Assembly (NCBI GenBank): GCA_963782705.1
Contig: CAWAKX010000014.1
Location: 10,201 to 74,200 of the forward strand
Reading direction: 5' to 3'
Source: an uncultured Actinomycetes bacterium
GTDB taxonomy: Bacteria > Actinomycetota > Acidimicrobiia > IMCC26256 > DASPTH01
Length of the DNA stretch: 64,000 nucleotides
A model generated the notes under the pieces. That model searched no databases, was not told the DNA's origin, and saw nothing but the letters and a program-made list of their open reading frames with translations. Shown in pieces: positions 1 to 62,344 of this stretch (its first letter is position 1; each line of letters begins with the position of its first letter). A program made the position numbers and the translations under genes.

Positions 1-163
1 CGCCGAGCGGGGTGTTCTGATGGGGGCAGATGCTCTGGAACGCGCACCAGTTGCCGTCGGCGTTGGCGAGCGTGACCGGCGTGCCGTCGACGTCGACGGT
101 CATGGTCTCGCCGGGCTCGAGGTAGTCGGCGGGCAGCGCGTCGACGAAGGTGTCCTCACTCAT
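1..163 (-). CDS. Rieske [2Fe-2S] ferredoxin, N-terminal part; the gene runs off the left edge of the window
   Basis: Reverse-strand translation from the ATG (complement of 161-163) gives MSEDTFVDALPADYLEPGETMTVDVDGTPVTLANADGNWCAFQSICPHQNTPLG. This contains the first Rieske box (C-P-H). It is absent from the ORF track because it is truncated by the window edge. Confidence 0.7.
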   Translation of the reverse strand, partial: MSEDTFVDALPADYLEPGETMTVDVDGTPVTLANADGNWCAFQSICPHQNTPLG

Positions 164-207
164 GCGGTGATGGTACGCGTCGACTGTCGCCGCGAGGTGC
201 TGTCGGG

Positions 208-3529: not shown

Positions 3530-4773
3530 TTACGCGTCGGCGTACTTGCCGACCTTGAGCGCCCGGGCGATGGTGCCGCCCATGATGAGCTCCTGGTCCT
3601 CCGCCGACAGCCCCGCGAGCACGTCGGCGTAGCCGAGCGGGTCGCCGAGGCCCTCGGGGTGGGGGAAGTCGGAACCGAACATCATCCGGTCGGCCGGGAC
3701 GCCGAGCTCGATCAGGCCCTTGGGGTCGGGCTCGTGGAAGATGTGCACCCACACGTTGCGCCTGAACACCTCCATCGGGTCCTCGTCGAAGAGCATCGGC
3801 GCCGCGCTCGTAGGCCTCCTGCATGCGCTCGACGAAGTTCCAGACCCACGTGGCCCGGTACTCGACCGGCATGAACTTGAGCTTGGGGAACCGGGTGGCG
3901 AGACCGTGCCCGATGATCGACGCCATCGCGTCGTAGATCGGGAGCTTGTCGGAGGCCATCGCCCGGAACGCGCCGTGGTCGCCGGCCGAGAACGGGGTGA
4001 ACTCGCGCGTGGTGCCTTCCCACTCGTTGAGGTAGCGCTGGTAGCCCGGGTCGCCGGAGTGCATGCCGACCACGAGGTCGAGCTCCTGGACCCGCTCCCA
4101 GAACGGGTCCCACTCCTGGCAGCGCGAACGACTTGCGCCCCTGCCACGTGGGCACGGGGGCGACGCGGATCAGGAAGATCTTGGCGCCGCGCTCGGCGAT
4201 GTAGTCGAGCTCCCGGATGGCGACGTCGTTGCCGGCCGCGAGGCTGATGATCGGGGTGGCGTAGATCGCGTCGGAGTAGTTGTAGGTCCAGTGCTCGTGC
4301 ATCCACTCGTTGAGCGCGTGGACGATCGTGACCGCGAGGTCGGGGTCGTCGGCGACCCGCTCCTCGAGCACGCTGGCGAGCGTGGGCCACAGCAGCGTGC
4401 GGTCGATCCCCATGTCCTTCATGAGCACGAGGCGCGGCTCGGGGTCGAAGAAGGCGTCGACGCTCGGCATGGCCTTGGGCTTCACGCCGCTGCCCGCGCC
4501 CGTGGCGCTCTCGCCGCGGTTCTCGACGTTCGCGCCGAAGCTGCCCGGCACCGCGACCCGCTCGAACGTGGGGTTCGGGATGTAGTTGCTGATGTTGTCG
4601 CGCACCGCGAGCTTGGTGCGGCCCTCGACGTCGATGTACTTGATGACGCCCTTGTACTGCTTGGGCAGGAACTTGGTGAGGGCGTCGCGGTTCTCGTACA
4701 GGTGGTTGTCGGCGTCGAACGTCTCGTAGGGAAGTCGGCGCTCACGGACGTAGATGAAGTCCTGGTCGGCCAT
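3530..4773 (-). pseudogene. PF04909-type amidohydrolase (ACMSD/LigW-like metal hydrolase), two frame changes
   Basis: The N-terminal segment is MADQDFIYVRERRLPYETFDADNHLYE...VPTWQGRKSFALP (ORF 3712-5025). The middle segment is EWDPFWERVQELDLVVGMHSGDPGYQRY...VERMQEAYE (ORF 2469-4073). The C-terminal segment is APMLFDEDPMEV...MFGSDFPHPEG...KVGKYADA (ORF 3530-4390). The junctions are near 4115 and 3808. Confidence 0.8.
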
Positions 4774-32463: not shown

Positions 32464-32544
32464 TTTCCTGAGACAACGCGCTTAACGTCCGCCGTTGACG
32501 GTCGGGGGCCCCGACCGAGGGGACGCGACCGAGGGGGACGTGAG

Positions 32545-34202
32545 ATGGCGGGTGTGATCGACGGGACCACGACCGATCTCGTGGTCGTGGGCAGTGGCGC
32601 CGCCGGGCTGTCCGGCGCGCTGGTGGCCGCCATCGGCGGCGCCCGGGTCACCGTGCTCGAGAAGACCGACCTGGTCGGTGGCACCACCGCGATCTCCGGC
32701 GGCGGGGCCTGGGTGCCCTGCAACCCGGTGATGGCCGAGGTCGGGCTCGAGGACACCCGCGACGCCGCGCTCACGTACCTACGCGAGTGCACCGGCGAGG
32801 CGGGCGAGCAGGACATGCTCGAGGCCATGGTCGACGCCGGCCCGGAGATGGTGGGGCTGCTGATGGAGGCCGGCATCCCCTTCCAGGCCTGGCCGGCCGA
32901 GGGCGGCGCGATCGACTACCGGGGCTGGCTGCCCGGCGGGATGCGCGGGGGCCGCACGATCGAGGCGATGGGCATCTCGGTGTCCGAGCTCGGCGAGTGG
33001 TCCGACAAGCTGCGCAAGGGGCCCGACCTCCGCAGCTCCGGGAACATGCTCGAGTACTACCGCCAGAGCATGCACCTGACCCGTCCCGATTCCGAGCTCG
33101 CGGCGACGATGGCGACCCCCGACCCGCCGGAGGTCGACGTCTACTGGCGCGGCACCGCGCTGATCGCCCGTCTGTTGAAGGCGTGCCTCGAACGGGGCGT
33201 CGTGGTGCACGTGGAGTCGCCCGCGGTCGAGCTGATCATGGACGGCGGCGCGGTCGCCGGCGTGCGCGCGCAGCACGGTGGCGAAGTCGTCGAGTTCCGG
33301 GCCCCGCACGTGCTGATGGCCACCGGCGGCTACGCGCACAGCGAGGAGCTCAAGCGCATCTGGCTCCAGCGGCCGCTCCTGTACACGTGCGAGAACGAAG
33401 CCAACGAAGGCGACGGCCACCGCATGGGCGCCGCGGTCGGCGCGCAGATGGCCGGCATGGGCGACGCGTGGTGGATGCCGCACACGCCGATGCTCGGCCC
33501 CGACGGTGTGGCCAACGCGGCCGGCACCCGCGAGGACCGCTCGCTCCCGCACACGATGATGGTGAACCCCGCGGGCAAGCGGTTCATGAACGAGTCGGTG
33601 AACTACTACGACGCCGGCGAGTCCTTCGGCGACGTGACCGGCGCGGCGCCGCGCAACTGGCCCGCCTGGTTGATCTTCGACACCCAGGGCAAGGACCGCT
33701 ACGCGATCCTCAACTGGAAGGTGCCGCCGCCCGAGTACCGGCCCGAGTGGGTGCACGAGGCCGACACCGTCGACGGGCTCGCGGCGTCGATCGGCGTCGA
33801 CCCCGCCACGTTGGTGGCCACCGTCGAGCGCTTCAACGGGTTCGCCCGCAGCGGTGTCGACGAGGACTTCCACCGGGGCGAGAACGCGTGGGACCACGCC
33901 TGGGGCGACCCCGAGCACGGCCCCAACGTCGCGCTCGGCACCCTCGAGGTGGGCCCGTTCTACGCGGTGCCGATGTACCCGGGTGCGATCTCCACGCGTG
34001 GCGGGTTGCGCATCGACGCCACCGGCAAGGTGCTCTCGGTGCTCACCGGAGATCCCATCCCCGGTTCTACGCCTCGGGCAACTGCTCGAACGGCGCCGCG
34101 CCCGGCTGCTACGCGGGGCCCGGCGCGACCATCGGTCCGGCGATGACCTTCGGGTACCTCATCGGTCGGCAGGTCGCCGACGCGGTGCGGGCCGGCGACT
34201 GA
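32545..34202 (+). pseudogene. FAD-dependent oxidoreductase, 3-ketosteroid-1-dehydrogenase (KstD)/fumarate-reductase-flavoprotein-like, one frame change
   Basis: The first segment is DLVVVGSGAAGLSGALVAAIGGARVTVLEKTDLVGGTTAISGGGAW. After a junction near 34065 comes the conserved C-terminus FYASGNCSNGAAPGCYAGPGATIGPAMTFGYLIGRQ. Confidence 0.8.
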
Positions 34203-35135: not shown

Positions 35136-36036
35136 ATGCCTGCGCTCGACATCGACCCGGAGATCCTTCGCGTCACCGCCGCCGCGTCAGCCCACGCGTA
35201 CGCGCAGACGGTGTGGCACATCCAGGAGGAGATCAACGCCGTCGAGGGCGACATGGTGCCGCTGTACGCGACCCTCACCGAGGAGGGGCCGTACGCCTAC
35301 ATGGTGATGCCCGAGCTCTGCGCCCGACGGCACGGTGAAGCTGCCGAGGATCACGACCCGCGACGAGATCGTCGAGTGCTACGAGATGATCCGCGGCATG
35401 AGCGATCTGCTCGAGGTCATCGGGCTCACCGAGATCCGGGGTGCGTGGTACACGTTCCAGGACAACATCTCCAAGGCGTGCATGAAGGGCGACACCGCCA
35501 ACGTGCACATGATGCAGACGCTCGGCATGTTCCCGTCGGGCGGTGGCTCGGGCATCACCGGCGAGCTGGTGTGGATCAAGTACCCGGTCGAGTCGCTCGG
35601 GGGACCCGACGAGCCGAACACGATCCCGGAAGACCCGCTGCTCGCTCGCGCGCGCGTGTACGACAACTTCGTTGCGTACCAGGAAGGAATGCGCGCCAAC
35701 GACGTCGACGCGGTCATGGCCGTCCTCCACGACGGCATCTCGTCGACGGTCCGCGACTACGTCGTTGACGACGGCACCATCACGGATCACGAAGGTGCCG
35801 CGGTGCACCGTGCGTACTACGAGGCGTTCTTCGCCAAGTACGAGGTCGAGTCGGTCGACCTGCTCCACCAGGTGATCGAAGACTGGTACGTGTTCGCCGA
35901 GCTTCGGATCACGGCGCCGTCGGGCGGCGCCGACGACGGGACGCTCGCGTTCCACACCGCCGAGTTCTGGATGCCGGCCAAGACGGGCAAGTTCATCGCT
36001 CGGGTCGGTCACGGCACCGAGCCCGCCGCTCAGTAG
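35136..36036 (+). pseudogene. NTF2/SnoaL-like domain protein of unknown function, one frame change
   Basis: The first segment is MPALDIDPEILRVTAAASAHAYAQTVWHIQEEINAVEGDMVPLYATL. After a junction near 35320 comes VKLPRITTRDEIVECYEMIRG...VMAVLHDGISSTVRDYV...EDWYVFAELRI. Confidence 0.6.
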
Positions 36037-48969: not shown

Positions 48970-49082
48970 CGTCGACCCGGCGAGAGGGAGTGCTCCCGGG
49001 CACGTCGTTGGTCTCGAGTCGTACGATGTATGGGTCGCGCCGCTCGCCAGGGGGTCGGAGCGAACTCTCGAGGGGGAAGACC

Positions 49083-50474
49083 ATGGAAGAGCGCCTCATC
49101 GTCATCTCGTCCGACAGCCATGCCGGGATCCCGAAGGAGCTGTGGCCCGAGTACCTCGATCCGCAGTTCCACGAGTTCATCGCGAACCTGCACGAGGACA
49201 ACGAGATCTACCCGGTGGCGATGGCCATGTTGAGCGCTCGCGTGCAGGGGCAGGCGCCGTTGGAGGAGCACCGTGAAGCCCACAGCACGGGCTGGCACGG
49301 ATTGCACGACGCGGTGCTGCGGATGGCCGACATGGACCGCGAGGGCGTCGCCGCCGAGTTCGTCTTCCACGGCGACTCGCGTCTGGGCGACCTCTTCCAC
49401 AACGTCAACAACCGCACGTACCCGTTCGAGGTGTGGGAGGCCGGCGCCCACGCGTGGAACCGGTGGGCCGCTGACAACTTCGGCTTCGCGCTCGACCGCT
49501 TCCTCCTCTGCGCAGCGGTCGGGCCGTGCGTCGACATGGACGCCGCGGTGGCCGAGATCCACTGGCTCGCCGACCACGGCTTCACCGCCACCTACGGACC
49601 GCACTACATGACGCACCCGGGACTGCCGCCGCTTCACGACGAGTACTGGGACCCGTACTGGGCCGCCTGCGCGGAGCGGAACATCGCGGTCGTCGTGCAC
49701 GCCGGGTTCGGCACCGAGCAGGGCACGGTGTTCAACGTCATCGAGGACATCTACGGTGCCGCGGCCGAAGCCGCCGGCAGCACCGACCGCGACGCGATGC
49801 TCGCCCACGCCGACGCCGTCCGCCAGGAGTCGGCCGACTTCTTCACGTGGTGGGTGAACCGCAACGTCGAGTCCCGTCGCCCGCTGTGGCAGATGACGTT
49901 GGGCGGCGTGTTCGACCGTCACCCGGCGCTGCGACTGATGCTCACCGAGATCCGCCTCGACTGGATCCCGGCCACCCTCGACTTCCTCGACGGTGTGTTC
50001 GAGGAGCACCGCGACGCGGTGCCCGCCCGTCGCAAGCCGAGCGAGTACTGGCACGAGAACTGCATGGCCGGTGCGTCGTTCGTGCACAAGGTGGAGATCG
50101 ACCGTCGCCACGAGATCGGCGTCGACACGATCCTCTTCGGTCGTGACTACCCGCACCCCGAGAGCACGTGGCCGCACACCCGCGAGTGGCTGCAGGAGGC
50201 GTTCGTCGGCGTGCCCGAGGACGAGGTGCGGGCGATGCTGGGCGAGAACGCCATCCGCTTCGCCGGTCTCGATCGCGAGCGCTTGGCCGAGATCGCCCGG
50301 CGGATCGGACCGACGATCGAGGACATCACCGGGCCGCACGCGGAGATCCGTCCGGAGCTGATGGCCAGCTTCAACGCGCGGGGCGGCTTCTCGAAGCCGT
50401 GGGAGGGCGACGAGCAGATCGGGCTGATCGCAGAGTTGGTCGAGAAGGACCTCACGATCACCGCGTCGGCGTAG
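49083..50474 (+). CDS. PF04909-type amidohydrolase
   Basis: The protein contains MEERLIVISSDSHAGIP, LTEIRLDWIP and ILFGRDYPHPESTWPHT. The reading frame is intact. Confidence 0.85.
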   Translation: MEERLIVISSDSHAGIPKELWPEYLDPQFHEFIANLHEDNEIYPVAMAMLSARVQGQAPLEEHREAHSTGWHGLHDAVLRMADMDREGVAAEFVFHGDSRLGDLFHNVNNRTYPFEVWEAGAHAWNRWAADNFGFALDRFLLCAAVGPCVDMDAAVAEIHWLADHGFTATYGPHYMTHPGLPPLHDEYWDPYWAACAERNIAVVVHAGFGTEQGTVFNVIEDIYGAAAEAAGSTDRDAMLAHADAVRQESADFFTWWVNRNVESRRPLWQMTLGGVFDRHPALRLMLTEIRLDWIPATLDFLDGVFEEHRDAVPARRKPSEYWHENCMAGASFVHKVEIDRRHEIGVDTILFGRDYPHPESTWPHTREWLQEAFVGVPEDEVRAMLGENAIRFAGLDRERLAEIARRIGPTIEDITGPHAEIRPELMASFNARGGFSKPWEGDEQIGLIAELVEKDLTITASA

Positions 50475-51113: not shown

Positions 51114-51208
51114 CCGAGAGCCGGCGTTCGGGCATTCCGTGACCTCTGCGGGTCGCCGGCATGGCGAGAAGACGCCGGTCCGGGCAAAGACGTGAACGTG
51201 TGGAGGGA

Positions 51209-52096
51209 TCAGCCTGCTTCGGCGGACGACGGCCACTCGGCCGGGGGCGACTCGAGGCGCTCGACGGTGGTCTCGGCCGCGGCGGCGAAGATGCCGGTGC
51301 CCTTGGCCAGCGCGCGGATCTCGGCGTCCTCGTAGAGCGCGTGGAGGTCCTTCGCCATCGGCGCCAGCGCGGCCCGGCGCATGGGGTCGGAGGCCCGCAC
51401 CCCGACCGCGACCTCGAGCGCGAAGCTCTTGCCCGAGCCGTGACGGATGAACTGCGCCATCGTCGTCGGGTTCGATGCCGAACTTGCGCCCGAGGGTGAG
51501 CGCGTCGTCGGCGAGCGCGAAGTTGGCGGCGAGCAGCGTGTTGTTCACGAGCTTGGCGAGCTGGCCCGATCCGAGCGGGCCCATGTAGATCACCGGGTCG
51601 CCGAACGCGCCGAACACCGGTGACACGCGCGCCGCGGCGTCGGCGTCGCCGCCGACCGCGACCACCAGGGTGCCGGCCTCCGCGCCGGCGCGGCCGCCGC
51701 TCACCGGGCACGTCGAGCACCTCCACGCCCTCGGGCGCGGCCGCCGCGAGCGCGGCGCACGTGGACGGGAGCACGGTGGCGTGGATGGCCACCACGGTGC
51801 CGGGTCGACACCCGGCGAACACGCCGTCGGCGCGCGTGCACACGTCGAGCACGTCCTCGTCGTGCCACACGCACACCCCGACGAGGTCGCTGCGCGCCGC
51901 GAGGTCGGCGGGCGTGGCGGCGAACTCCACGTTGGGCGCGGCGAAGGGTTCGAGCGCCTCGGGCCGGCGGGCCCACAGCACCGTGGGGTGACCGGCGGCG
52001 ATGATGCGGCCGGCCATGGCCGCCGCCCATGTCGCCGAGGCCGATGAACCCCACCGTGCCCACGGCCGAACCCGGGCGCGCGTCGTCGGCGGTCAT
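51209..52096 (-). pseudogene. 3-hydroxyisobutyrate/6-phosphogluconate dehydrogenase-family NAD(P) oxidoreductase, about 3 frame changes
   Basis: The segments in order are MTADDARPGSAVGTVGFIGLGDMGG, AMAGRIIAAGHPTVLWARRPEA... and VSGGRAGAEAGTLVVAVGGD...MGPLGSGQLAKLVNN. The final segment is MAQFIRHGSGKSFALE. Confidence 0.75.
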
Positions 52097-52157
52097 GGTG
52101 CTCCCTTCCGCGGCCCGCGGGGCCACGTGTGCGGCGCAGTGGGTCCGGCGCGGGGCG

Positions 52158-53429
52158 TCAGGCGCTCGGGACGAGGTACGGCGGGTTCGCGTCGTAGCGG
52201 GCCCGCCATTCGGCGCGCGACACCTCGGCGGTGTCGACGTCGGGCGACTGCGCCCGCAGCGCGCCCACCGTGGCCTGCTCCTTCGGGATCACCGCGAACG
52301 GGTCGTAGTCGCAGAAGCGGGCGACGTTGCGCCAGGTGATCTTGTCGATGTCGTCGTCGGAGAGGCCCGCGCCGTCGCACTCGGCGAGCAGGAACTCGGG
52401 CGCGTTGGGCCACACCGAGTCGCTGTGGGGGTAGTCGACCTCGTAGGCGATCATGTCGATCCCGATCTGGTGCGCGAGCCGCAGCGAGGTCGGGTCGGAG
52501 ATGAAGCAGGCCAGGGTCTGCTCCCGCAGGAGCTGGCTCGGCAACTTGCCGCCGAAGTCCTGACGGGTCCAGCGCTGGTTCTCGTAGTGACGGTCGATGC
52601 GGTCCATGAGGAACGGCAGCCAGCCGATGCCGCCCTCGGAGAACGCGAACTTGAGCTGCGGGAACTTCCGCAACGCGGGGCCCCAGATGAGGTCCTGGGT
52701 GCAGAGCACCGACACCTGGGTGGCCAGCACCATGTAGTTGTCGATGTGGAAGTCGGGCCCCATGTCGATCGCGTCGAGGCCCTGGCCGATGTGGAGGCAC
52801 ACGACGACGCCCTCGTCGCTGCACACCTGCCACAACGGGAACCAGTACTCGCTCTGGTACGTGGGCAGACCGATGAGGTGCGGCATCTCGGGCATGCTGA
52901 TCGCCCGGGCGCCCTTGGCCACGATGCGCTTCACCTCGGCGACGGTCTCGTCCATGTTCCACCCCGGCGCGATGCCGAGCGGGATGAAGCGGCCGGGGTG
53001 CGACCCGCACCACTCGTCGATGTGCCAGTCGTTGTAGGCCCGCAGCATCACCAGCGCGAGGTCCTTGTCGGCGGCGTCGTAGAAGCGCCCGCCGGAGAAG
53101 CCGGGCATGCTCGGGAAGCACATCGAGGCGAAGGTGCCGTTGCGGTCCATGTCGCGGACCCGCTCGTCGATGCGGTACGCGGCGGGGCGCATCTCCGCGA
53201 TGGAGCTGGCGTCCATGCCCCAGTCTTCCTTGGGCCACCCGACGGTCGCGTTGAGCCCGACGGTCGCGACGTCCTTGCCCTCGAAGATCCAGTGGTCCTT
53301 GCCGGCCTCGTCGCGCACCAGGCGCGGCGCGCGCTCGAGGTACTCGGCCGAGAGGTGACCCTGGAAGATGTCGGGCGGCTCGACCGTGTGGTCGTCGATG
53401 CTGAGGATGATCATGTCGTCGACGTTCAC
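52158..53429 (-). CDS. PF04909-type amidohydrolase
   Basis: The protein contains MNVDDMIILSIDDHTVEPPD, VCLHIGQG and YEVDYPHSDSVWPN. The reading frame is intact. Confidence 0.85.
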   Translation of the reverse strand: MNVDDMIILSIDDHTVEPPDIFQGHLSAEYLERAPRLVRDEAGKDHWIFEGKDVATVGLNATVGWPKEDWGMDASSIAEMRPAAYRIDERVRDMDRNGTFASMCFPSMPGFSGGRFYDAADKDLALVMLRAYNDWHIDEWCGSHPGRFIPLGIAPGWNMDETVAEVKRIVAKGARAISMPEMPHLIGLPTYQSEYWFPLWQVCSDEGVVVCLHIGQGLDAIDMGPDFHIDNYMVLATQVSVLCTQDLIWGPALRKFPQLKFAFSEGGIGWLPFLMDRIDRHYENQRWTRQDFGGKLPSQLLREQTLACFISDPTSLRLAHQIGIDMIAYEVDYPHSDSVWPNAPEFLLAECDGAGLSDDDIDKITWRNVARFCDYDPFAVIPKEQATVGALRAQSPDVDTAEVSRAEWRARYDANPPYLVPSA

Positions 53430-53511
53430 GTCGCCCTCCTGAGGAGCTCGGTTCGCGTGTTCGGTTGTCCCCGGAGCGGCGCCGGTCGCGCGGCGGGTCT
53501 CACGCGAGCGG

Positions 53512-55173
53512 TCAGCTCGCGCGCACGACCTGTCCGGGCAGGGCCCCGACGAGCTTGCCGTCGTCGATGATCGGCACGCCGTTGACGATCACGAACGGGA
53601 TCCCCTGCGCCTGCTTGGTCATGCGCTGGCCACCGCCGGGGATGTCGTCGAGCGTCTCGAGCGCGAGCGGTCCCACGGTGTCGGGGTCGAAGATCACCAG
53701 GTCGGCGGCCTTGCCCACCTCGACCGTGCCGCGGTCGGAGAGGCCGCAGAAGTCGGCGACCTCGCTGGTCAACGCGGCGACCGCCGCCTCGAGGGTGAAG
53801 GAGCCCTTCTCCCGCACCCAGTGCTGGAGGAAGTAGCTCGGGTAGTCGCCGCCGGCGAACGTCTGCAGGTGGGCGCCACCGTCGGAGATGCCGACGAGGG
53901 TCGCCGGGCTCTTGAGGATCCGCTCGAGGCGGGACTCGTCGACGTTGACCGGGCCCGACAGCAGGAAGTAGGTGCCGAGCTCGTCGCTGATCGCGGTGTC
54001 GAACATGACGTCGGACGGGTGACAGCCCCGCTCGGCGGCGATGTCGTTGAGGAGGCGACCCTCGAGGTGCTTGTTCTCCGGGTTGGTGGTCTTCTCGACG
54101 GTGGCGTTGTCGAGGAACTTGGCCGACTTCCAGAACTCGGCCAGGCGGGCCCGCCACTCGGGGTCGGCGAGCGCCGCGAGCTTGTCCTCGGGGTCGAGCC
54201 GGGAGAGGTCGACCCAGTCCTCGGAGCCGGCGAACGCGGCGGAGAGCTTCTTGAGCGTGAAGCGCGACTCGGCGCGCTGGCAGCGGGCCACCGCGTAGAT
54301 GCGGTGACCCTTGCCGAGCTCCTCCTCCATGAACGCGAGCGCGCTGTCGCCGTTGGGCGTGCCCAGCCCGAAGTCGTTCCACGACACGACCGTCTCCGAC
54401 GTCTCGGCGATCTCGACGAGGAACGCGCGGTCCTCGTCGTTCAGGCCGTCGCGCTTGGTGGCGGGGTTGATCGACACGAGCTGGCGGCCCTTGCGCTTGA
54501 CCGCGTCGGCCAGCGCGAGGATCTCGGCGTGGGTCGAGAAGTACGTGGGGATGTGCTCGCCCTGCTCACCGCGCTGGTGCGGAGCGTGGCTGCTGCTCAC
54601 GCCCGCGGCGCCGGCGTCCATCGCCTCCTCGACGACGCGGACCATCTCCGCGATCTCCTCGGGGGTCGCCTCCCGGTGCAGCGCGTCCTCGCCCATCACG
54701 AAGCGGCGCACCGCGCTGTGGCCCACCTGGATCACGGCGTTGATGCCGAGGGTGCCCTCGATCGTGTCGAGGTACTCGGGGAAGGTTTCCCAGGGCAGCG
54801 GCGCGAAGGCCTCGAGCGCGCCCTTCGGGATCTCCTCGGTGGCCGCGAACAGGCCGATCAGGTACTCCTGGTCCTGCGGGCGCACCGGCGCGAGGGTGTA
54901 GCCGCAGTTCCCCATGAGGACGGTGGTGACGCCGTGCACGGCCGCGGGGTTGGCCCACGGGTCCCAGAGCAGCTGGCCGTCGTAGTGCGTGTGGGCGTCG
55001 ATGAAGCCCGGGGCGAGCACCCGGCCCTCGGCGTCGATGGTGCGCTCGGCCGCGCCGCTCACCGCACCGATCTCGGCGATCTTGCCGTCCTGGACGGCGA
55101 CGTCGCCGACGTAGGCCGCCCGGCCCGTACCGTCGACGATCCGGGCGTTTGTGACCACCAGGTCCCAGGCCAT
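53512..55173 (-). CDS. N-acyl-D-amino-acid deacylase (D-aminoacylase)-family amidohydrolase
   Basis: The protein contains MAWDLVVTNARIVDGTGRAAYVGDVAVQDGKIAEIG, GFIDAHTHYDGQ, ISDGGAH and ADLVIFDP. The reading frame is intact. Confidence 0.85.
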   Translation of the reverse strand: MAWDLVVTNARIVDGTGRAAYVGDVAVQDGKIAEIGAVSGAAERTIDAEGRVLAPGFIDAHTHYDGQLLWDPWANPAAVHGVTTVLMGNCGYTLAPVRPQDQEYLIGLFAATEEIPKGALEAFAPLPWETFPEYLDTIEGTLGINAVIQVGHSAVRRFVMGEDALHREATPEEIAEMVRVVEEAMDAGAAGVSSSHAPHQRGEQGEHIPTYFSTHAEILALADAVKRKGRQLVSINPATKRDGLNDEDRAFLVEIAETSETVVSWNDFGLGTPNGDSALAFMEEELGKGHRIYAVARCQRAESRFTLKKLSAAFAGSEDWVDLSRLDPEDKLAALADPEWRARLAEFWKSAKFLDNATVEKTTNPENKHLEGRLLNDIAAERGCHPSDVMFDTAISDELGTYFLLSGPVNVDESRLERILKSPATLVGISDGGAHLQTFAGGDYPSYFLQHWVREKGSFTLEAAVAALTSEVADFCGLSDRGTVEVGKAADLVIFDPDTVGPLALETLDDIPGGGQRMTKQAQGIPFVIVNGVPIIDDGKLVGALPGQVVRAS

Positions 55174-55266
55174 GCGCGCAACCTCCGCTGCAACGATTCC
55201 GCTTCGGATCTAGAAGGTACCTGAGCGCGGGGCCGGACGGCACCCCGGAGCGGGGGCCGGGCTGCG

Positions 55267-56634
55267 TCAGCCGTTGGACACCGCCAGCGCGCCGGCCAGG
55301 GTCCGCACGTCGGCGAGGTCGGCGAGGCCGGCGCAGAGGTCGATGATGCGCTGGCGCTGCTCCTCGCCGGCGATGGTGCCCGCGGTCTCGTGGAACTTGC
55401 CGAGGATCTCGTCCTGGGTGAGGGGGTCGAGCGGGGTGCCGTGGGTGGTGGTCACCGTGTCCTCGAGCTCCTCGCCGTTGGTGAGCTTCAGGACGACCCG
55501 GCTCTCGAGCCCGCCGCCGGTGGGGATGCGCTTCACCCGCTGCATCAGGGACTGCGCCACCGGGTTCTGGACCTTCTCGTCGGTGTACTCGTGGATCCCG
55601 CCCTTGCCGTAGAGGGCGATGGTCACGACGTCGAACTCGAGGCTGTACTTCGCCTCGAGGCCGGACTGGGGCGACGTGTAGGGCACGTTCGACTCGAGGA
55701 AGGCGGGGAACTCCACCTCGATCGCCTCGATCTCCTCCGGCGCGACGGGCCGGCGGCGCACGATGTTCTGGATCGCGTCCATGCTCCAGTGCGCGGCCGC
55801 GCACGACGCGTGCAGCCGCAGCGTGGCGCCGTGGGTCGCGAGGTTGAAGGTCCCCAGGCCGTCGAGGATCTTCTCGGGATCACCGTTCTCGAGGCCGAGC
55901 ATCCGGGCCACGCCGAACTCGCCGTCGAAGATGTCGGGGTTGGCGGTGAAGCCCATGGCGGCCAGCTCGGCGGCCATCACGCCGTGCATCGCCGCGTTGC
56001 CGGCGGTGAAGCCCTTGGTGTCGCTGCCGCGGTTCTTCATGACCCCGCCCATGGCCGAGGCCGCGTGGCCCAGCGCCATGCGGGTCTGGTCGACGTCGAG
56101 GCCGAGCAGCTTCGCCGAGAGCGCGGCGACGCCGAGGCACTCCTGGAAGCCCTGGTTGAACCAGCCGCGGTTGATCAGGCCGTTGCCGAGCGGCTCCATG
56201 ACCGGCTTCATCGTCTGGGCGGTGATCTCCCAGCCGACCACCCAGGCGAGCACGAGGTCGCGTCCCGAGACGCCGAGCTTCTCGCCGAGCGCGACGCTCG
56301 ACGCGGTGAGCGGGCTGTTCGGGTGGCTGCTGAACGTCGCGATGTCGTCGTTCTCGAGCGCGTGCGACGTCGCGCCGTTGAGCAGCGTGGCGTACGACGC
56401 CGAGGTCCGCAGGTCGCTGCCGGTCACCGTGCACTCCGGCGTCGCGCCCTGGGCGCGCACCCACTCCGACAGCAGCGTGCCGAGGCGCACCGTCAGTCCC
56501 GCGAACTGGTTCCCGATCGAGTCGAGGACCAGGTTGGGCACCCGGTCGATCGCGGCCTGGGGGAGATCGTCGTACCCGACGTTCACCACCCAGTCGGCGA
56601 CCTGCTCGGTGACGGACGCGTTCGAGCTTGCCAT
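55267..56634 (-). CDS. MmgE/PrpD-family protein (2-methylcitrate dehydratase-like), copy 1
   Basis: This is a 455-aa intact ORF. It contains VADWVVNVGYDDLPQAAIDR, GATSHALENDD and HASCAAAHWSMDA. Confidence 0.8.
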   Translation of the reverse strand: MASSNASVTEQVADWVVNVGYDDLPQAAIDRVPNLVLDSIGNQFAGLTVRLGTLLSEWVRAQGATPECTVTGSDLRTSASYATLLNGATSHALENDDIATFSSHPNSPLTASSVALGEKLGVSGRDLVLAWVVGWEITAQTMKPVMEPLGNGLINRGWFNQGFQECLGVAALSAKLLGLDVDQTRMALGHAASAMGGVMKNRGSDTKGFTAGNAAMHGVMAAELAAMGFTANPDIFDGEFGVARMLGLENGDPEKILDGLGTFNLATHGATLRLHASCAAAHWSMDAIQNIVRRRPVAPEEIEAIEVEFPAFLESNVPYTSPQSGLEAKYSLEFDVVTIALYGKGGIHEYTDEKVQNPVAQSLMQRVKRIPTGGGLESRVVLKLTNGEELEDTVTTTHGTPLDPLTQDEILGKFHETAGTIAGEEQRQRIIDLCAGLADLADVRTLAGALAVSNG

Positions 56635-56688
56635 CGGAGTCTCCTCTTCGGTGCGTGCGCCAGCGGCGAGCGACGCCGGGCGTCAGGC

Positions 56689-57192
56689 TCAGAGCTCGGC
56701 GAGGAATCCTTCGGCCCGGAGGACCTTCTCCACGCCGCCGCCGATGATGATCTCGGCGAGGGGCTTGGGGACGGGGTTGCCCTGGATCGTCGTGCCCTTG
56801 GTGACGTTGGTGACGACGCCACTGATCCAGTCGACCTCGATCACGTCGCCCTCGTCGACCGCGTCGCCGATGCCGGGGCAGGGGAGCGAGGGGAGTCCGG
56901 AGTTCACGCAGTTGCGCAGGCCCAGGCCGTTGAACGACTCGGCGACGACCCCGGAGATGCCGAGGCCCTTCCAGACCGCGCCGATGTCGCGGGCGGAGCC
57001 CACGCCGAGGTTGTGCCCGCCGACGAGCACGTCGCCGGGCTGGACCTCGTCGACCCAGCCGGGCCGGTTGGCGCTGAAGCAGTACTGCAGCTGCTCCTCG
57101 ATCGGCATGAGGACCGCGAAGTTGGGGATCACGAGGTCGGTGTTGATGTCGTCACCGAACTTCCAGACCTTCCCGCTGAACGTGTTCGACAT
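56689..57192 (-). CDS. Aconitase-family dehydratase small subunit (LeuD-like swivel domain)
   Basis: The protein contains GKVWKFGDDINTDLVIP and NLGVGSARD. The reading frame is intact. Confidence 0.8.
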   Translation of the reverse strand: MSNTFSGKVWKFGDDINTDLVIPNFAVLMPIEEQLQYCFSANRPGWVDEVQPGDVLVGGHNLGVGSARDIGAVWKGLGISGVVAESFNGLGLRNCVNSGLPSLPCPGIGDAVDEGDVIEVDWISGVVTNVTKGTTIQGNPVPKPLAEIIIGGGVEKVLRAEGFLAEL

Positions 57193-57255
57193 GGGTGGGT
57201 GCTTCCTTCTCGTCTGGGGTCTTCGTCTGCTGGCCGCGTGGTGACCGGGTGGCGG

Positions 57256-58491
57256 TCAGAACTCGCGGGGGTCGGAGATCACGCCGGCGATGGCCGAGGC
57301 GGCCACCGTGGCGGGCGAGCCCATGTAGACGCTCGCGCTGGGGCTGCCCATCCGGCCCTGGAAGTTGCGGGTCGACGCGGTGATGCAGACCTCGCCGTCG
57401 CCGAGGAGGCCGAGGTGACCGCCGAAACAGGCGCCGCACGTGGAGTTGGTGACCACCGCGCCGGCTTCCATGATGGTCGACACGTACCCGAGCTTGATGG
57501 CCTCCTGGAGGATCGCCTGGCTGCCCGGCGTCACGATCATGCGCACGCCGTCGGCGATCTTCTTGCCGTTCAGCACGTCGGCCGCGACCTTGAAGTCGCT
57601 CAGCCGGCCGTTGGCGCAGGAGCCGATGAAGGCCTGGTCGACCTTGATCTTCTCGGCGGCGACGTCGGTGACGGGCTTGACGTTCTTGGCCACCTTGTTC
57701 GGGAGCACGACCTGCGGCACGAGGTTGTCGAGGTCGATGTGGAGCTCCATCTCGTACTCGGCGTCCTCGTCGGGGAACGCCGGCTCGAACTCGCGCTTGG
57801 CGCGCCCTTCGAGGTAGTTGGCGAGCACGTCGTCGTAGGGGAACATCGAGAACTCGGCCGAGAGCTCGGCGGAGATGGTGGCCATGGTGAGGCGACCGTC
57901 CATGTCGATGTTGGCGAGGCCGTCGCCGTGCCACTCGAGGTTCCGGTTGGCGAAGTCGCCGTACTTGCCCGGCAGGTAGTGGATGATGTCGCGCGGGTAC
58001 ACGCGGTCGTTGAGCGTGCCGTCGAGCACGATCTTGGTGGTCTGGCCGACGAGGTACCAGGTGGTCCCCTTGCAGAGGATGTAGGTCATCTCGTTGGAAC
58101 CCATGCCGCGGGCGAGGCAGTTCATCGCGCCCGACGAGCACGTGTGGGAGTCGGGATTGGCGAGGATCGTGCCGGGCAGCGCGATGCCCTCCTGGGCGAC
58201 GAGCACGTGGCTGATGCCGTGCTGGCCGACGGGGAAGTAGTTCTTGATGCCGAACTTCTCCACGAAGTCGCGCATCTTGATGGCGTGGTTGGCCGCCTGC
58301 ACGGTGGGGGCCGGCACCTGGTGGTCGAACAGTGCGACGACCATGTCGGGGTCGTGGATGCGCAGGACGTCGGCGCGCATCGAGTCGAAGTGGACGGTCG
58401 TGTCGACGTCCACGACGACCACGTCGCCGGGCTTGACGACGTCGACTTCGGAGTGGTTGGCGAGGATCTTCTCGATCGTGTTCATTCCCAT
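57256..58491 (-). CDS. Aconitase-family dehydratase large subunit (LeuC-like)
   Basis: The protein contains MNTIEKILANH, NPDSHTCSSGA, FIGSCANGR, NSTCGACFG (three Fe-S Cys ligands) and STRNFQGRMG. The reading frame is intact. Confidence 0.85.
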   Translation of the reverse strand: MGMNTIEKILANHSEVDVVKPGDVVVVDVDTTVHFDSMRADVLRIHDPDMVVALFDHQVPAPTVQAANHAIKMRDFVEKFGIKNYFPVGQHGISHVLVAQEGIALPGTILANPDSHTCSSGAMNCLARGMGSNEMTYILCKGTTWYLVGQTTKIVLDGTLNDRVYPRDIIHYLPGKYGDFANRNLEWHGDGLANIDMDGRLTMATISAELSAEFSMFPYDDVLANYLEGRAKREFEPAFPDEDAEYEMELHIDLDNLVPQVVLPNKVAKNVKPVTDVAAEKIKVDQAFIGSCANGRLSDFKVAADVLNGKKIADGVRMIVTPGSQAILQEAIKLGYVSTIMEAGAVVTNSTCGACFGGHLGLLGDGEVCITASTRNFQGRMGSPSASVYMGSPATVAASAIAGVISDPREF

Positions 58492-58557
58492 AGGAGGAGT
58501 CTGCCTCGTCTCGTGTGAGTTCGGTAGTTGAGGAACGAGCGGGGAGGGCGAGCTCGT

Positions 58558-59973
58558 TCAGCGGGGGCTGAACAGCGGGGTGATCTCGGCGACGTCGTCG
58601 AGGGTCTCCACGCTGCGGGCGCTGCGGTACAGCAGGTCGGCCTGCTCCTGGCCGAGCACCCGCACCGCCATGTCCATGAACTTGGCCTTGAAGTCCTCTT
58701 CGCTGAGCGGGTTCGACGGGTTGCCCCGCGGGTAGAGCACCTCTTCGGTGAACTCGCGGCCGTCCTTCAGCCGCACCGTCACGCGGCCGGGCTTGGAGAA
58801 CTTCACCTTCTGGTACAGCTCGGAGTCCTGGTAGACGACCGTCTTCGGGATGAGGCCCTGCACCCGGGGGTCGGCCACCGTCTCGTCGGTGAACTGGTCG
58901 ACGCCGATCGTGCGGTGCACCGCGGCCACCGAGAGGGCGAAGGGCAGGCTCGCCTGCGCGCTCACCACCGTCGACACCTTGTGCTTGGCGAGGAACGGTT
59001 CGACCCGCTGCCAGGCCGCCTCGATCTCGACGATGTCCTCGTGGTGGATGTCGTTGCCCTGCACGATCTTGAGCAGCGCCTCCACCGGCGCGTGCAGCGT
59101 GAGGTTCATCGGGTAGGGCTTCACCCAGCGGGTGGAGATGGCGTAGGAGTCGCCGAGGCCGCCGAGCAGCTCGTCGAGCTTGCAGCGCCCGCCCCAGAAG
59201 GTGGCGGCGAACCCCTGCACGCCCTCGATGCCCATCGCGGTGGCCTTGAAGTACCGCTCGCCCATGAGCGCGGCGGTGACGGCCCGCTCGCCGGCCATGC
59301 CGCCGTTGAGCGACCGCTGCCAGGAGCCTTCCTCGTGGCCCTGGAAGCTGCCGCCCGCGAAGGCGCAGCCGAGACCGATCGCGTAGGTGGTCTGCAGGGC
59401 GTCGAGGCCGAGCACCCGCGAGCACGCGGCGGCGGAGGCGGGCGTGCCCATCACCGCGGGGACGTAGAAGCCGCTCGAGGTGTGGGTGCCGGCGTTGACC
59501 TCGGCTTCGGTGGGCATCATCGCCCCGGCGAGGCGGTCGATGATCTCGTAGGCGATCACGATGCCGAGGACGAGGTCGCGACCCGGCTTGTGGCGCGTCT
59601 CGCTCATCACCAGCGGGCCGGTGACCGCGAACGGGTAGGGCCGGCCGCCGCGTCCGAAGTCGGCGTACTCGAAGCCGAGGGCCATGGTGCCGTTGGCGAA
59701 CGCGGCGCGCGCCGCGGTGGCCTTGGCGCCGGTGGCGATGATGGTGGCCTCCGGGCGGCACCCGCCGTCGAGCTCGGCGAACGCCGCGATGGCCTGGCCC
59801 CACTCCTTGGTGGCGCCCACGAACAGGCTCTCGCCGAGGTAGTCGGCGAAGGCGCGGGTGGCCTCCTCGACCACGGGCGCGGGGAGGTCCTCGTACCGGA
59901 GCTGCGTGACCCATTCGGCCAGCTCCCTGGTGACCAGCCGTCCGCCGGTCACGGTGTCGTCGCGCGTGTCCAC
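58558..59973 (-). CDS. MmgE/PrpD-family protein, copy 2
   Basis: The GTG (complement of 59971-59973) follows a GGAGGGG ribosome-binding site. The protein contains LAEWVTQLRYEDLPAPVVEEATRAF and the tail of the 1257-aa ORF, ending at 58558. The reading frame is intact. Confidence 0.8.
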   Translation of the reverse strand: MDTRDDTVTGGRLVTRELAEWVTQLRYEDLPAPVVEEATRAFADYLGESLFVGATKEWGQAIAAFAELDGGCRPEATIIATGAKATAARAAFANGTMALGFEYADFGRGGRPYPFAVTGPLVMSETRHKPGRDLVLGIVIAYEIIDRLAGAMMPTEAEVNAGTHTSSGFYVPAVMGTPASAAACSRVLGLDALQTTYAIGLGCAFAGGSFQGHEEGSWQRSLNGGMAGERAVTAALMGERYFKATAMGIEGVQGFAATFWGGRCKLDELLGGLGDSYAISTRWVKPYPMNLTLHAPVEALLKIVQGNDIHHEDIVEIEAAWQRVEPFLAKHKVSTVVSAQASLPFALSVAAVHRTIGVDQFTDETVADPRVQGLIPKTVVYQDSELYQKVKFSKPGRVTVRLKDGREFTEEVLYPRGNPSNPLSEEDFKAKFMDMAVRVLGQEQADLLYRSARSVETLDDVAEITPLFSPR

Positions 59974-59985
59974 CGATTCCCCTCC

Positions 59986-60015
59986 ATCGTGTCCGAGACC
60001 ATCGTGTCCGAGACC
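59986..60015. repeat. Perfect 15-bp tandem duplication (ATCGTGTCCGAGACC x2) in the ligase-prpD2 spacer
   Basis: I read this directly from the sequence: 59986-60000 is identical to 60001-60015. Confidence 0.95.
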
Positions 60016-60041
60016 GTGCGGGCGCGGGCCCAGGCCGGGAG

Positions 60042-61683
60042 TCAGGCGTCGGCCTCCCCCGGCGCGGCCAGCGCCGCGGCGGCACCGTAGTCGACCTTGC
60101 CGTTGGCGGCCCGGGGTACCGCGTCCACGAAGTACACGCGGCGCGGCACCTTGTATCCCGCGAGGGCCGTCGCGCACCGTGCCGGTGATGTCGGAGCTCG
60201 TGGCGGCGCTGCCCGCGCGGCACACCACCAACGCAGTCACGGCCTGACCGAAGCGCTCGTCGGGCACCCCGAGCACCAGGCAGTCCTCGACGTCGGGATG
60301 TTCCTTGATCGCCTCTTCCACCTCGGCGGGGTACACCTTCTCCCCGCCGGTGTTGATGGTGCTCACGCCCCGGCCGATCAGGGTGACGGAGCCGTCGTGC
60401 TCGATCCGGCCGAGGTCGCCGGGCATCGCGTACTGCACGCCGTCGATGAGGAAGTAGGTCTCCGCCGACTTCGCGGGGTCGCGGAAGTAGCCGGTCGCCG
60501 CCGCGGGCCCGGCCAACGTCCCCACCTCGCCCGGTGGGAGCTCGGTACCGTCGGGTCCGAGCACCTTGAGGCCGGGCGCGGGATCGAAGTTCGCGGTCGC
60601 GGCGGCGTCGCCGTAGCGCACCTGCCGGATGCCGTAGCTCACGCCCTCACTCGCGCCGCACGCGTCGAACAGCATCGCGTCGTGCATGAAGTCGAGCAGG
60701 CGTTCCTTGAGGTGCGCGCTCCAGGCCACGCCGGCCGAGCAGATCGAGCGCACCGAAGACACGTCGTAGTTCCCGCCTCCGGGTCGGCCCTCGTCGAGGG
60801 CGCGGACCATCGGGAGTGCGAACGCGTCGCCGACGATCGCGAGCACCTGCGCGCCCGTGGCCTCGACCGTTGCGAAGAGCTCGTGGGCGTCGAACGAGCG
60901 GCTCTCCAGCGTGGTGACGTTGCCGCCCGCGGTGAGCGCCGGCAGCGTCGCGAAGATGAAGGCGGTGCTGTGCATCAGCGGCGATGCCGGGACCGCCGCC
61001 ATCGGTCGCCCCGACTCCCACTGCCGCACCGCGAACTCGACCGGCGTGACGTCGGGCTCGAGTGGCCGGTCGAGGAAGAGGTCGCGGAACCAGATGCAGT
61101 TGCGGATGCTGCCTTCGACGTGCATGAGCACGCCCTTGGGGAGGCCCGTCGTGCCACCCGTGTAGGAGAGGAAGGAATCGTCTCCCGAGCGCTCGATGCG
61201 CGCCGCGGGTTCGGCGGACGCGAGGAGGTCCTCGTAGGCGACCACGCCTCGGCTCGGTTCGTCGCCGGGCGGCGTGCCGACCTCGACGAGGAGGCGCAGC
61301 CCGGTCGCCTGGTGAGCGGCCGACGCGACGCGGTCGCGCAACGCGGCGTCGAAGACGAGCGCCTTCGCCTCCGAATTCTCGAGCAGCATCAGGAGCTCGT
61401 CGCTGCCGTAGCGGTAGTTGACGTTCGAGGGCACCGCCCGGATCTTCAGGCCGCCGAAGAACACCTCGTAGTACTCGGGGCAGTTGTAGAGGTACGCCGC
61501 GATGGTGTCGCCCCGGCCGATGCCGTGGGCCTGCAACGCGCCGGCGAGGCGCGCCGCGCGCTGCTCGAAGTCGTGCCAGGTGATGAGCCGGGAACCGTGC
61601 CCGAGCGCGGGGGCATCAGGGATGCGATCCGCGATCTCCTCCCAGATGGTTGCGTAGTGGCGGCTCGGCCCGGAGTCGCTCAC
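60042..61683 (-). pseudogene. AMP-dependent acyl-CoA ligase, one frame change near the 3' end
   Basis: The GTG (complement of 61681-61683) overlaps the tetR stop (GTGA). The first segment is SRHYATIWEEIADRIPDAPAL...LSYTGGTTGLPKGVLMH...INTGGEKVYPAEVEE. After a junction near 60170 comes LAGYKVPRRVYFVDAVPRAANGKVDY...EADA, with the stop at 60042-60044. Confidence 0.8.
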
Positions 61684-62344
61684 GCCGTCGTCGGTTCGCC
61701 CGGCGCCGGCGCGAGGCCGCGCGCGACCAGGGCCACGTAGAAGTCGGCGAGGTCGGAGTAGCTGCGGCGCCCGCCGGGGCGGAACCATCGGACCGTGCCG
61801 TGGAGCATCTCGAGCAGGCTGTTGGTCACGACACCGGGGTCGAGCGTGACGTCGAAGCATCCTTCGTCGATGCCCTGCTCGACGATCCGTCGCAGGAACC
61901 GGTGGATCTCGGTGCGCATCCCCATGATGTGCTCCCGCCGTTCGCCTCGCAGCAGCCCCACGTCGCGCTCGGCCACCGCCGCGTAGTCGGGGGTGGCGGG
62001 GATCATCGCCATGTACCGCCGCACGAATGCGTCGAGGCGGGTGGCGGCGTCCGCCGAGCGGGTGGCCTCGTCTTCCGCGAGGGTGGCGATCCCCTTCTCG
62101 TGGCTGTCGACGGCCAGCGCGTAGAGGAGGTCCTCCTTGGTCTGGATGTAGTAGTAGAGGCTGCCCTTGAGGATCCCGACCCGCGCCGCGATGTCCTCGA
62201 TGCGCGCGGCCTGGTAGCCCTTCTCGTGGAACACCGCGCCGGCGGCGTCGAGGATCTCGCCCCAGCGCTCCTCGTTGAGGGTGCCCTTCGGGGCCGCGCC
62301 GTCCCGGGCCTGCGCGCCCCCTCGTGTTCACGGGTTGTGGCCAC
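61680..62344 (-). pseudogene. TetR-family transcriptional regulator, one frame change in the N-terminal leader
   Basis: The HTH region is ILDAAGAVFHEKGYQAARIEDIAARVGILKGSLYYYIQTKEDLL. The only in-frame start (GTG 62234) would delete helix 1. The start MATTREHEG (GTG, complement of 62342-62344) is in another frame, with a junction near 62305. Confidence 0.7.

Follow-up and report, generated by a model that had tools for sequence, protein, structure and literature searches.

A conserved MmgE/PrpD and LeuCD-like gene module with a predicted DitZ-like oxygenase in soil Actinomycetota

The DNA analysed here is a 64-kb stretch of contig CAWAKX010000014.1 from an uncultured Acidimicrobiia bacterium (hereafter the window), and the block under study is a run of minus-strand genes at positions 52158–62344 that encodes two MmgE/PrpD-family proteins, a LeuCD-like pair and four further proteins. 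The window is approximately 71% GC and, because GC at the third codon position (GC3) reaches 0.95–1.0 in coding frames, the true frames are easily traced. Eight co-directional genes with single-frame GC3 of ~0.95–1.0 run from 62344 down to 52158, with spacers of 54–93 nt, and the tetR stop codon overlaps the ligase start as GTGA. A preliminary description of this DNA had listed eight co-directional genes with short spacers and the GTGA overlap, and had given each gene a family label; frames, GC3 and Pfam domains agree with it on all of these points.

Reading along the minus strand, the block begins with a TetR-family regulator (about 61680–62344; Pfam TetR_N, 49.9 bits, and TetR_C_24, 93.1 bits; frame broken) and an AMP-forming acyl-CoA synthetase (60042–61683; AMP-binding and AMP-binding_C; 546 residues once corrected). 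These are followed by PrpD-A (58558–59973; MmgE_PrpD_N and MmgE_PrpD_C; 471 residues, GTG start), the large subunit of a LeuC/HacA/DmdA-type [4Fe-4S] hydro-lyase (57256–58491; Aconitase, 268 bits; 411 residues), a LeuD/DmdB-type small subunit (56689–57192; Aconitase_C; 167 residues) and PrpD-B (55267–56634; MmgE_PrpD_N and MmgE_PrpD_C; 455 residues). The last two genes encode a D-acylase-type (subtype V) amidohydrolase (53512–55173; Amidohydro_3; 553 residues) and a putative DitZ-like, amidohydrolase-related dinuclear (diiron) oxygenase (52158–53429; Amidohydro_2; 423 residues). A β-hydroxyacid-dehydrogenase-like gene on the same strand (51150–52110; NAD_binding_2/NAD_binding_11 type, the Pfam assignment being taken from an orthologue in the related locus L019) lies just below 52158, outside the coordinates first described, and probably belongs to the unit as its ninth gene. 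Scans for sigma-70 promoters and intrinsic terminators were uninformative in DNA of 71% GC, and no convincing operator was found among inverted repeats upstream of tetR.

A one-genome-per-species scan with PrpD-B gave 30 loci (identified, like other loci, by L-numbers), nearly all in metagenome-assembled genomes (MAGs) of Acidimicrobiia, together with the isolate Mycobacterium sp. BK086, whose locus is at about 44.7–66.0 kb of NZ_SNWL01000010.1; no PrpD-B in them exceeds 70% identity, so the window's own species lies outside the representatives. Soil metagenomes hold hundreds of PrpD-B relatives at 64–71% identity. Neighbourhoods were counted by tblastn with the eight window proteins (TetR cut-off 1e-20). 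PrpD-A, LeuC, LeuD and PrpD-B keep the same order and strand in 26 of the 30 loci, and at least LeuC, LeuD and PrpD-B are present in 28. An Amidohydro_3 orthologue (60–72% identity) lies directly downstream of PrpD-B in 22 loci, a DitZ-like oxygenase orthologue (64–72%) lies within 10 kb of the core in 15, and dehydrogenase-like orthologues (51–59%) follow the core on the same strand in eight. Ligase orthologues (60–66%) occur in four loci (L015, L020, L021 and L030), downstream of the core and so on the opposite side from the window, and a TetR orthologue was detected in none of the related loci. The conserved unit is a five-gene core with variable but recurrent partners, rather than the eight genes as first drawn: the gene order proposed for the core stands, whereas the positions of tetR and the ligase are not conserved. 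Chance juxtaposition was rejected on the basis of this synteny.

Clustering of open reading frames, with Pfam assignments made on L001–L004 and L019, adds to the recurrent neighbours two further Amidohydro_2 types (one without metal ligands), a fused double family III CoA-transferase, a second AMP-ligase type, a dienelactone hydrolase, short-chain dehydrogenases/reductases (SDRs) and cytochromes P450; a DUF35–thiolase fusion gene usually lies between hydrolase and oxygenase. Two of the contigs with the same actinobacterial-type cluster are titled as a Proteobacteria MAG (L009) and a Bifidobacterium breve MAG (L022), and are probably mis-binned or mislabelled.

One metagenomic sequence (L038; JGI 3300061210, Ga0590173_0064004) is 98.1% identical to window positions 54509–57012, over 2.5 kb. 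Of the 43 coding differences between the two, 40 fall on third codon positions, and the two indels lie between genes; PrpD-B has 31 nucleotide differences, none of which alters an amino acid. Since the differences fall so largely at third positions and leave the PrpD-B protein unchanged, they show that the core is under purifying selection. This sequence also places a close relative of the source organism in a JGI metagenome. The block is a conserved, uncharacterised and probably catabolic module of soil Actinomycetota (mostly Acidimicrobiia, with one Mycobacterium isolate) in which known families occur in a new arrangement. The preliminary description knew of no characterised pathway with this combination; we likewise found no orthologous characterised pathway, and no description of the gene combination in the literature searched.

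Two PrpD paralogues had been reported, and both carry the two MmgE/PrpD domains: PrpD-B scores 175 and 77.6 bits against the N- and C-terminal Pfam models and PrpD-A 130.5 and 106 bits (cut-off 32.1), and the two proteins are 25% identical to each other. Judged by model score, neither is a PrpD (2-methylcitrate dehydratase) equivalog; against the equivalog model NF042438, with a cut-off of 950, PrpD-B reaches 44.4 bits and PrpD-A 23 bits. E. coli-type PrpD structures are absent among the PDB matches at E below 1e-5 for either paralogue. The best solved relatives of PrpD-B are iminodisuccinate (IDS) epimerase (134 bits) and cis-aconitate decarboxylase (CAD; 124 bits), whose E/D..DD..HP..K scaffold it keeps; E94, D96, D97, H104-P105 and K207 are invariant across 26 sequences. 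For CAD, we take the catalytic residues to be D93, T97, H103, H159, K207, K272, H277 and Y318, of which D93, T97, H103 and K207 were mapped onto PrpD-B, and H103 and K207 onto PrpD-A. The equivalents of D93, H103 and K207 in PrpD-B are E94, H104 and K207, whilst T97 is replaced by isoleucine. Differences from the solved enzymes are this replacement with respect to CAD, a similarity confined to 124–134 bits and the lack of an adjacent C–N lyase or itaconate-pathway partner. In a plasmid collection no PrpD-B relative exceeded 34% identity, and the contexts inspected there were unrelated.

The PrpD-A orthologues are as strongly conserved, but have arginine at the positions of PrpD-B His104 and Lys207. 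E102, D105, R111-P112 and R220 are invariant in 16 orthologues, the corresponding residues of PrpD-B and CAD being D-D, H-P and K. PrpD-A and its orthologues (L005–L031) form a distinct, strongly conserved MmgE/PrpD subgroup in which His-Pro/Lys has become Arg-Pro/Arg. PrpD-A may partner PrpD-B either without catalytic activity or with a different one.

The hydro-lyase is of LeuCD type with its three Fe-S cysteines kept, as first described; C292, C352 and C355 of the large subunit are present in the window and invariant in 16 orthologues, and this subunit is 72–77% identical to its orthologues in related loci. It passes the subfamily models NF001614 (431 against a cut-off of 385) and TIGR01343 (403 against 386), and the small subunit passes TIGR02087, the 'LeuD/DmdB family' (115 against 109). 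The pair falls below the cut-offs of all equivalogs (LEU2, 381 against about 611; HacA, 329 against 550; LeuD, 107 against 246; HacB, 102 against 229). Its nearest solved relative is the M. jannaschii isopropylmalate/citramalate isomerase.

An MmgE/PrpD gene beside an aconitase-superfamily hydro-lyase gene is likewise found in the methylcitrate cycle (PrpD with AcnB, or AcnD with PrpF), where one enzyme dehydrates a tertiary hydroxy-acid and the other rehydrates the product. The shared gene pattern would suit a modified methylcitrate or alkylcitrate cycle for removing propionyl-CoA or branched acyl-CoAs formed by the β-oxidation genes around it, and the island would indeed yield such compounds. 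We nevertheless regard such a cycle as improbable, since the PrpD equivalog scores lie far under the cut-off and the PDB matches hold no E. coli-type PrpD. Unlike the methylcitrate operon, moreover, the block has a two-subunit LeuCD/DmdAB-type hydro-lyase and two divergent PrpD paralogues, one of them remodelled, with no PrpC, PrpB or PrpF seen beside it. Searches by tblastn with two isocitrate lyase (ICL)/phosphoenolpyruvate (PEP)-mutase proteins and PrpF found neither kind of gene in the window or among 34 related loci, and Pfam scans of loci and of most of the window revealed no citrate-synthase domain. Orthology of the block to the methylcitrate operon was rejected on the equivalog scores and on the lack of a PrpB-type lyase and PrpF.

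Other precedents for the pairing end differently. In nicotinate fermentation the dimethylmaleate hydratase DmdAB works with 2,3-dimethylmalate lyase, and the LeuD-like subunit of the block passes the model of the family to which DmdB belongs. The nearest cultured LeuC-like relatives (45–52% identity) adjoin ICL/PEP-mutase lyases: a cluster on Streptomyces cattleya pSCATT has LeuC-like (52%), LeuD-like, MmgE/PrpD, PrpF and ICL-like lyase genes, and an Ancylobacter plasmid has a LeuCD-like pair beside an ICL-family lyase. Unlike DmdAB and the S. cattleya cluster, the block is partnered by a D-acylase-type hydrolase, a putative diiron oxygenase and a β-hydroxyacid-dehydrogenase-like enzyme, and has no ICL-family lyase. 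As ICL/PEP-mutase lyases and PrpF are missing, methylcitrate-type and dimethylmalate-type endings are excluded. By analogy, the S. cattleya and Ancylobacter clusters support the PrpD dehydratase plus aconitase-family hydratase logic put forward in the preliminary description, although they end in a lyase not found here, and this logic is still the most economical reading of the core. The S. cattleya cluster (L047; pSCATT 31–36 kb) is itself unannotated, has genes for MarR and AsnC-type regulators and an Amidohydro_2 gene ahead of it, and looks like an uncharacterised alkylcitrate or dimethylmalate-type pathway.

The best solved relative of the Amidohydro_3 protein is D-aminoacylase (155 bits). 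Its residues H61-x-H63, C90 (the bridging cysteine) and D431 are invariant, and the 14 true orthologues also keep H199 and H207, the two middle histidine ligands, which are assigned by position only. A review of D-acylases, which also defines subtype V, describes a Cys-bridged metal site as unique to these enzymes within the superfamily (PMC12149444). By sequence, the block protein carries the residues of subtype V deacylases acting on N-acyl-D-amino acids (H-x-H, Cys, His and Asp). This site raises the possibility of N-substituted amino-dicarboxylate catabolism, in which PrpD-B would epimerise a compound of aspartate or glutamate type bearing an N-acyl or N-alkyl group, the hydrolase would cleave the D-form, and LeuCD with PrpD-A would process the unsaturated or hydroxy dicarboxylate released. 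That IDS epimerase is the best solved relative of PrpD-B fits such a route, as does the adjacency of PrpD-B and the hydrolase in 22 of 30 loci. The epimerase is, however, barely ahead of CAD (134 against 124 bits), the chemistry of the surrounding island is mainly that of CoA, SDRs and oxygenases, and general scans of the window and related loci showed no aminotransferase, deaminase, C–N lyase or amino-acid transporter; we consider amino-dicarboxylate catabolism unlikely, though it is the main rival to our own reading.

The terminal gene (52158–53429) is predicted to encode a DitZ-like diiron oxygenase and not a hydrolase. Residues 1–414 of its 423-residue product align with residues 1–420 of DitZ (PDB 8uyr; E 2e-134, 452 bits, ~52% identity), and the motifs 'SIDDHTVEP' and 'VDYPHSDS' correspond to 'SIDDHVVEP' and 'CDYPHSDS' of DitZ. 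Amidohydrolase-related dinuclear oxygenases (AROs) combine an N-terminal D-x-H motif with a C-terminal D-x-P-H-x-D/E motif, the latter reported to be absent from characterised PF04909 hydrolases and decarboxylases (PMC13154177). The terminal protein has both signatures (D-D-H and D-Y-P-H-S-D). The two amidohydrolase-superfamily enzymes of the preliminary description are thus both present by fold, but this one belongs to the oxygenase branch, which shifts the proposed chemistry from a second hydrolysis to a hydroxylation; more generally, the Pfam label 'Amidohydro_2' can conceal oxygenases. DitZ has been described as a diterpenoid hydroxylase with a diiron site, for which dehydroabietic acid was the compound studied (PMC13154177), and at 52% identity the same substrate cannot be assumed for the block protein. 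The latter is closer to DitZ than is every plasmid-borne homologue (these at 43% or less), and DitZ-like matches in the plasmid collection (45% or less) lie in β-oxidation-type contexts, not in dit clusters.

DitZ, with the same motifs, belongs to the dit cluster for abietane-diterpenoid catabolism of Pseudomonas abietaniphila and Paraburkholderia xenovorans; in the canonical cluster an 'ORF4 amidohydrolase' lies next to ditQ, and we infer that ORF4 is DitZ. The window island has further dit-like features in its TetR regulator, CoA ligase and P450. Orthology to the dit cluster was rejected, the canonical cluster having neither MmgE/PrpD nor aconitase-family genes. PrpD and LeuCD go unmentioned in the Ambrox paper and in the papers on resin acids. 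For Rhodococcus, a recent genome study reports that the dehydroabietic-acid enzymes of Pseudomonas have no matches of high identity, and describes the genetic basis as poorly understood.

PtmU3 of platensimycin biosynthesis, the second-best solved relative of the terminal protein (117 bits), and AibH1H2 are AROs that act β to an acid group, with the same fold and metal motifs. Their roles are nevertheless not those of the block, PtmU3 being biosynthetic and AibH1H2 having no link to PrpD or LeuCD. PrpD-family dehydratases act in alkylcitrate-derived natural products, and the block might on that ground belong to a biosynthetic cluster, for instance for an alkylcitrate- or dialkylmaleic-anhydride-type metabolite. 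Some AROs are also found in biosynthetic clusters (PMC13154177). We think a biosynthetic role very improbable: we saw no polyketide synthase, nonribosomal peptide synthetase, alkylcitrate synthase or set of tailoring genes; neighbouring genes (for acyl-CoA dehydrogenases, enoyl-CoA hydratase, CoA-transferases, SDRs and a KstD-like protein) are a typical catabolic set; and the block occurs widely among soil MAGs, in varying surroundings.

Our own reading, which is tentative and carries appreciable doubt, is that the block may be a dehydration–rehydration module for a hydroxy-di- or tricarboxylate, set in a large CoA-dependent island for a branched or alicyclic (terpenoid or steroid-like) acid. 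The island in the window comprises a P450, family III CoA-transferases, four acyl-CoA dehydrogenases, an enoyl-CoA hydratase, a MaoC-like hydratase, five AMP-ligases, two molybdenum hydroxylases, a KstD-like flavoprotein, a SnoaL protein, at least ten SDRs and six ARO-like Amidohydro_2 genes. The DitZ-type diiron oxygenase would hydroxylate an unactivated C–H near a carboxyl group, and hydroxylation or ring cleavage would then give a di- or tricarboxylate with a tertiary alcohol, of the 2-alkylmalate or alkylcitrate type. 2-Isopropylmalate, which has been reported as a dehydroabietic acid metabolite (PMC6891630), would be an attractive candidate for a model substrate. A tertiary alcohol is not directly oxidisable; PrpD-B, perhaps together with the remodelled PrpD-A, would dehydrate it as an MmgE/PrpD-type enzyme. 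The LeuCD-type Fe-S hydro-lyase would rehydrate the alkene to a secondary alcohol, to be oxidised, possibly with decarboxylation, by the β-hydroxyacid-dehydrogenase-like enzyme or an SDR. The D-acylase-type metallohydrolase would open an amide, lactone or anhydride form of the substrate, and the ligase, which at 527 bits scores just below the cut-off (543) of NCBIfam PRK07798, would form the CoA ester for the surrounding β-oxidation-like enzymes; TetR would repress the unit. A more specific version, which we would advance only as a rather unlikely conjecture, is an unrecognised O2-dependent route in which the DitZ-type hydroxylase makes the tertiary alcohol, and a heteromeric PrpD-A/PrpD-B enzyme with the LeuCD-type hydratase moves the hydroxyl for oxidation or cleavage of the skeleton.

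Several observations weigh against a dehydration–rehydration module of this kind. Every chemical step in it is read from family membership. The nearest solved relatives of the PrpD paralogues are an epimerase and a decarboxylase, not a dehydratase, and neither paralogue scores as a PrpD equivalog, whilst PrpD-A is without the His and Lys of the canonical site. The Cys-bridged site of the hydrolase and the N-deacylase activity of its solved relatives fit an amide better than a lactone. The DUF35–thiolase gene of the related loci is absent from the 64-kb window. The link to diterpenoids depends on one gene; the 24-gene dit cluster, unlike the block, has no MmgE/PrpD or aconitase-family member, and the scanned parts of the window showed neither a DitA-type ring-hydroxylating dioxygenase nor an extradiol dioxygenase of DitC type.

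If the dehydration–rehydration reading is correct, a trick known from propionate metabolism would extend to branched acids derived from terpenoid or other alicyclic carbon, and the module would be linked to diiron oxygenases of a recently recognised class. The module would also offer a first genetic handle on the use of quaternary or tertiary branched carbon by Acidimicrobiia, soil actinobacteria of high abundance with hardly any cultured members, and by some mycobacteria; the cultured carrier Mycobacterium sp. BK086 makes the proposal testable. Were the O2-dependent PrpD/LeuCD route to exist, it would fill in some of the genetics still missing for the breakdown of resin acids and terpenoids by Gram-positive soil bacteria.

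Contrary to the preliminary description, the block is not wholly intact, for the ligase and tetR frames are both disrupted. The ligase has a one-nucleotide insertion (a +1 frameshift) near 60168. With one base removed there it reads TVRDALAGYKVPRR, a gapless match to the orthologues in L020, L021, L030, L039 and L040, and ligase homologues read 'VR.(A/S)LAGYKVPRR' without a gap across the site. The TetR protein has both its N-terminal helix-turn-helix and its C-terminal domain, in a frame that, as assembled, does not run on from any start codon; no ATG, GTG or TTG occurs in the helix-turn-helix frame before 62234, and the GTG at 62344 lies in a different frame. One G added to the G5 run at ~62317–62321 joins the tetR frame to that GTG. 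The dehydrogenase-like gene has at least two frameshifts, near 51477 and 51720, its translation continuing over three frames. All six genes from 59973 to 52158 are full length relative to their orthologues.

Disruptions were counted by merging frame switches detected from GC3 with those supported by homology, which gives 42 candidates in the 64-kb window (0.66 per kb). The longest disruption-free interval (8.4 kb; 51720–60168) spans the core of the block and is approximately twice the next longest; for 42 uniformly placed events, a gap of 8.4 kb has P ~0.11. The clean ~7.8 kb first noted is borne out in that the six genes are full length, but its 'sharp contrast' with the rest of the window is not significant, and the contrast in intactness is no evidence for selection on the block.

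The damage in the window consists of indels only, with no in-frame nonsense codon within GC3-defined coding runs except at gene ends, and frameshifts occur inside the same core genes in related MAG loci (L015, L020, L021, L024, L028, L029, L030 and L033). On these grounds we consider that the disruptions are most probably assembly errors. Many of the related MAG loci carry an 'MFD' isolate label, which we take to mark long-read assemblies. If the frameshifts were instead real pseudogenes, an intact core among damaged neighbours would indicate selection in a decaying genome. The frameshifts do cluster by gene (~3–4 in a ligase at 44.4–46.1 kb, at least two in the dehydrogenase-like gene and ~5 or more in a 2-oxoacid:ferredoxin oxidoreductase), and they lie away from long homopolymers. 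Against this, and in addition to the indel-only damage and the frameshifted relatives, the broken genes keep high GC3 and similarity to their homologues, and the longest clean gap is unexceptional under uniform placement; genuine decay therefore seems unlikely to us.

The clusters of disruptions, at 22.7–29, 38.2–40.9, 44.4–46.1 and 51.2–52.1 kb, fall in the 2-oxoacid:ferredoxin oxidoreductase, the second Mo-hydroxylase, one AMP-ligase and the dehydrogenase-like gene, a gene-wise pattern that assembly error leaves unexplained. A homopolymer origin of the frameshifts was rejected: one of 23 sites is near a run of five or more, against a background of 7%. G/C homopolymers in the window number 91 at length 5, four at length 6, one at length 7 and two at length 8. 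This drop beyond 5 looks steeper than composition predicts, and basecalling or polishing may have compressed longer runs. An exact-pattern scan across the ligase frameshift for sequence from the same strain gave no match, a protein-guided scan of metagenome contigs at that site gave only relatives of 67% identity or less, and exact look-ups of the window PrpD-A and of the window oxygenase matched no record. Frame disruptions in such windows should not count as biology without reads.

Elsewhere in the window, an FAD_binding_2 protein of KstD or fumarate-reductase type (560 residues; 32464–34143, plus strand) and a SnoaL-like protein (35308–36033, plus strand) lie amid SDRs, a set typical of steroid or polycyclic terpenoid ring degradation. 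Amidohydro_2 genes number six, at 3548–4737 (minus), 17.8–19.0 kb (plus), 26.6–27.8 kb (plus), 29.4–30.6 kb (minus), 48990–50471 (plus) and, within the block, 52158–53429 (minus). Several of them carry oxygenase motifs (for instance 'FDADNH...SDFPHPE', 'STDGH...ADLPHSE' and 'SDSH...RDYPHPE'), and six in 64 kb is an unusual density of putative dinuclear oxygenases. At the start of the window (1–200, minus strand), the N-terminal segment of a Rieske-type [2Fe-2S] protein ('...NWCAFQSICP') runs off the end; it could be the ferredoxin partner for one of the oxygenases. Among the related loci, an Amidohydro_2 paralogue adjoining the core in L019 (5468–6640) is without both metal motifs, having 'SADSR' and 'YFPAEESD' in their place, and its cluster is represented in 11 loci. 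This motif-less paralogue is paired with another that reads 'SADGH' and 'DFPHSS'. The degenerate paralogues resemble the AibH1 partner, and the pairing of degenerate with intact copies calls to mind the heterodimer AibH1/AibH2, one of whose subunits has no catalytic role.

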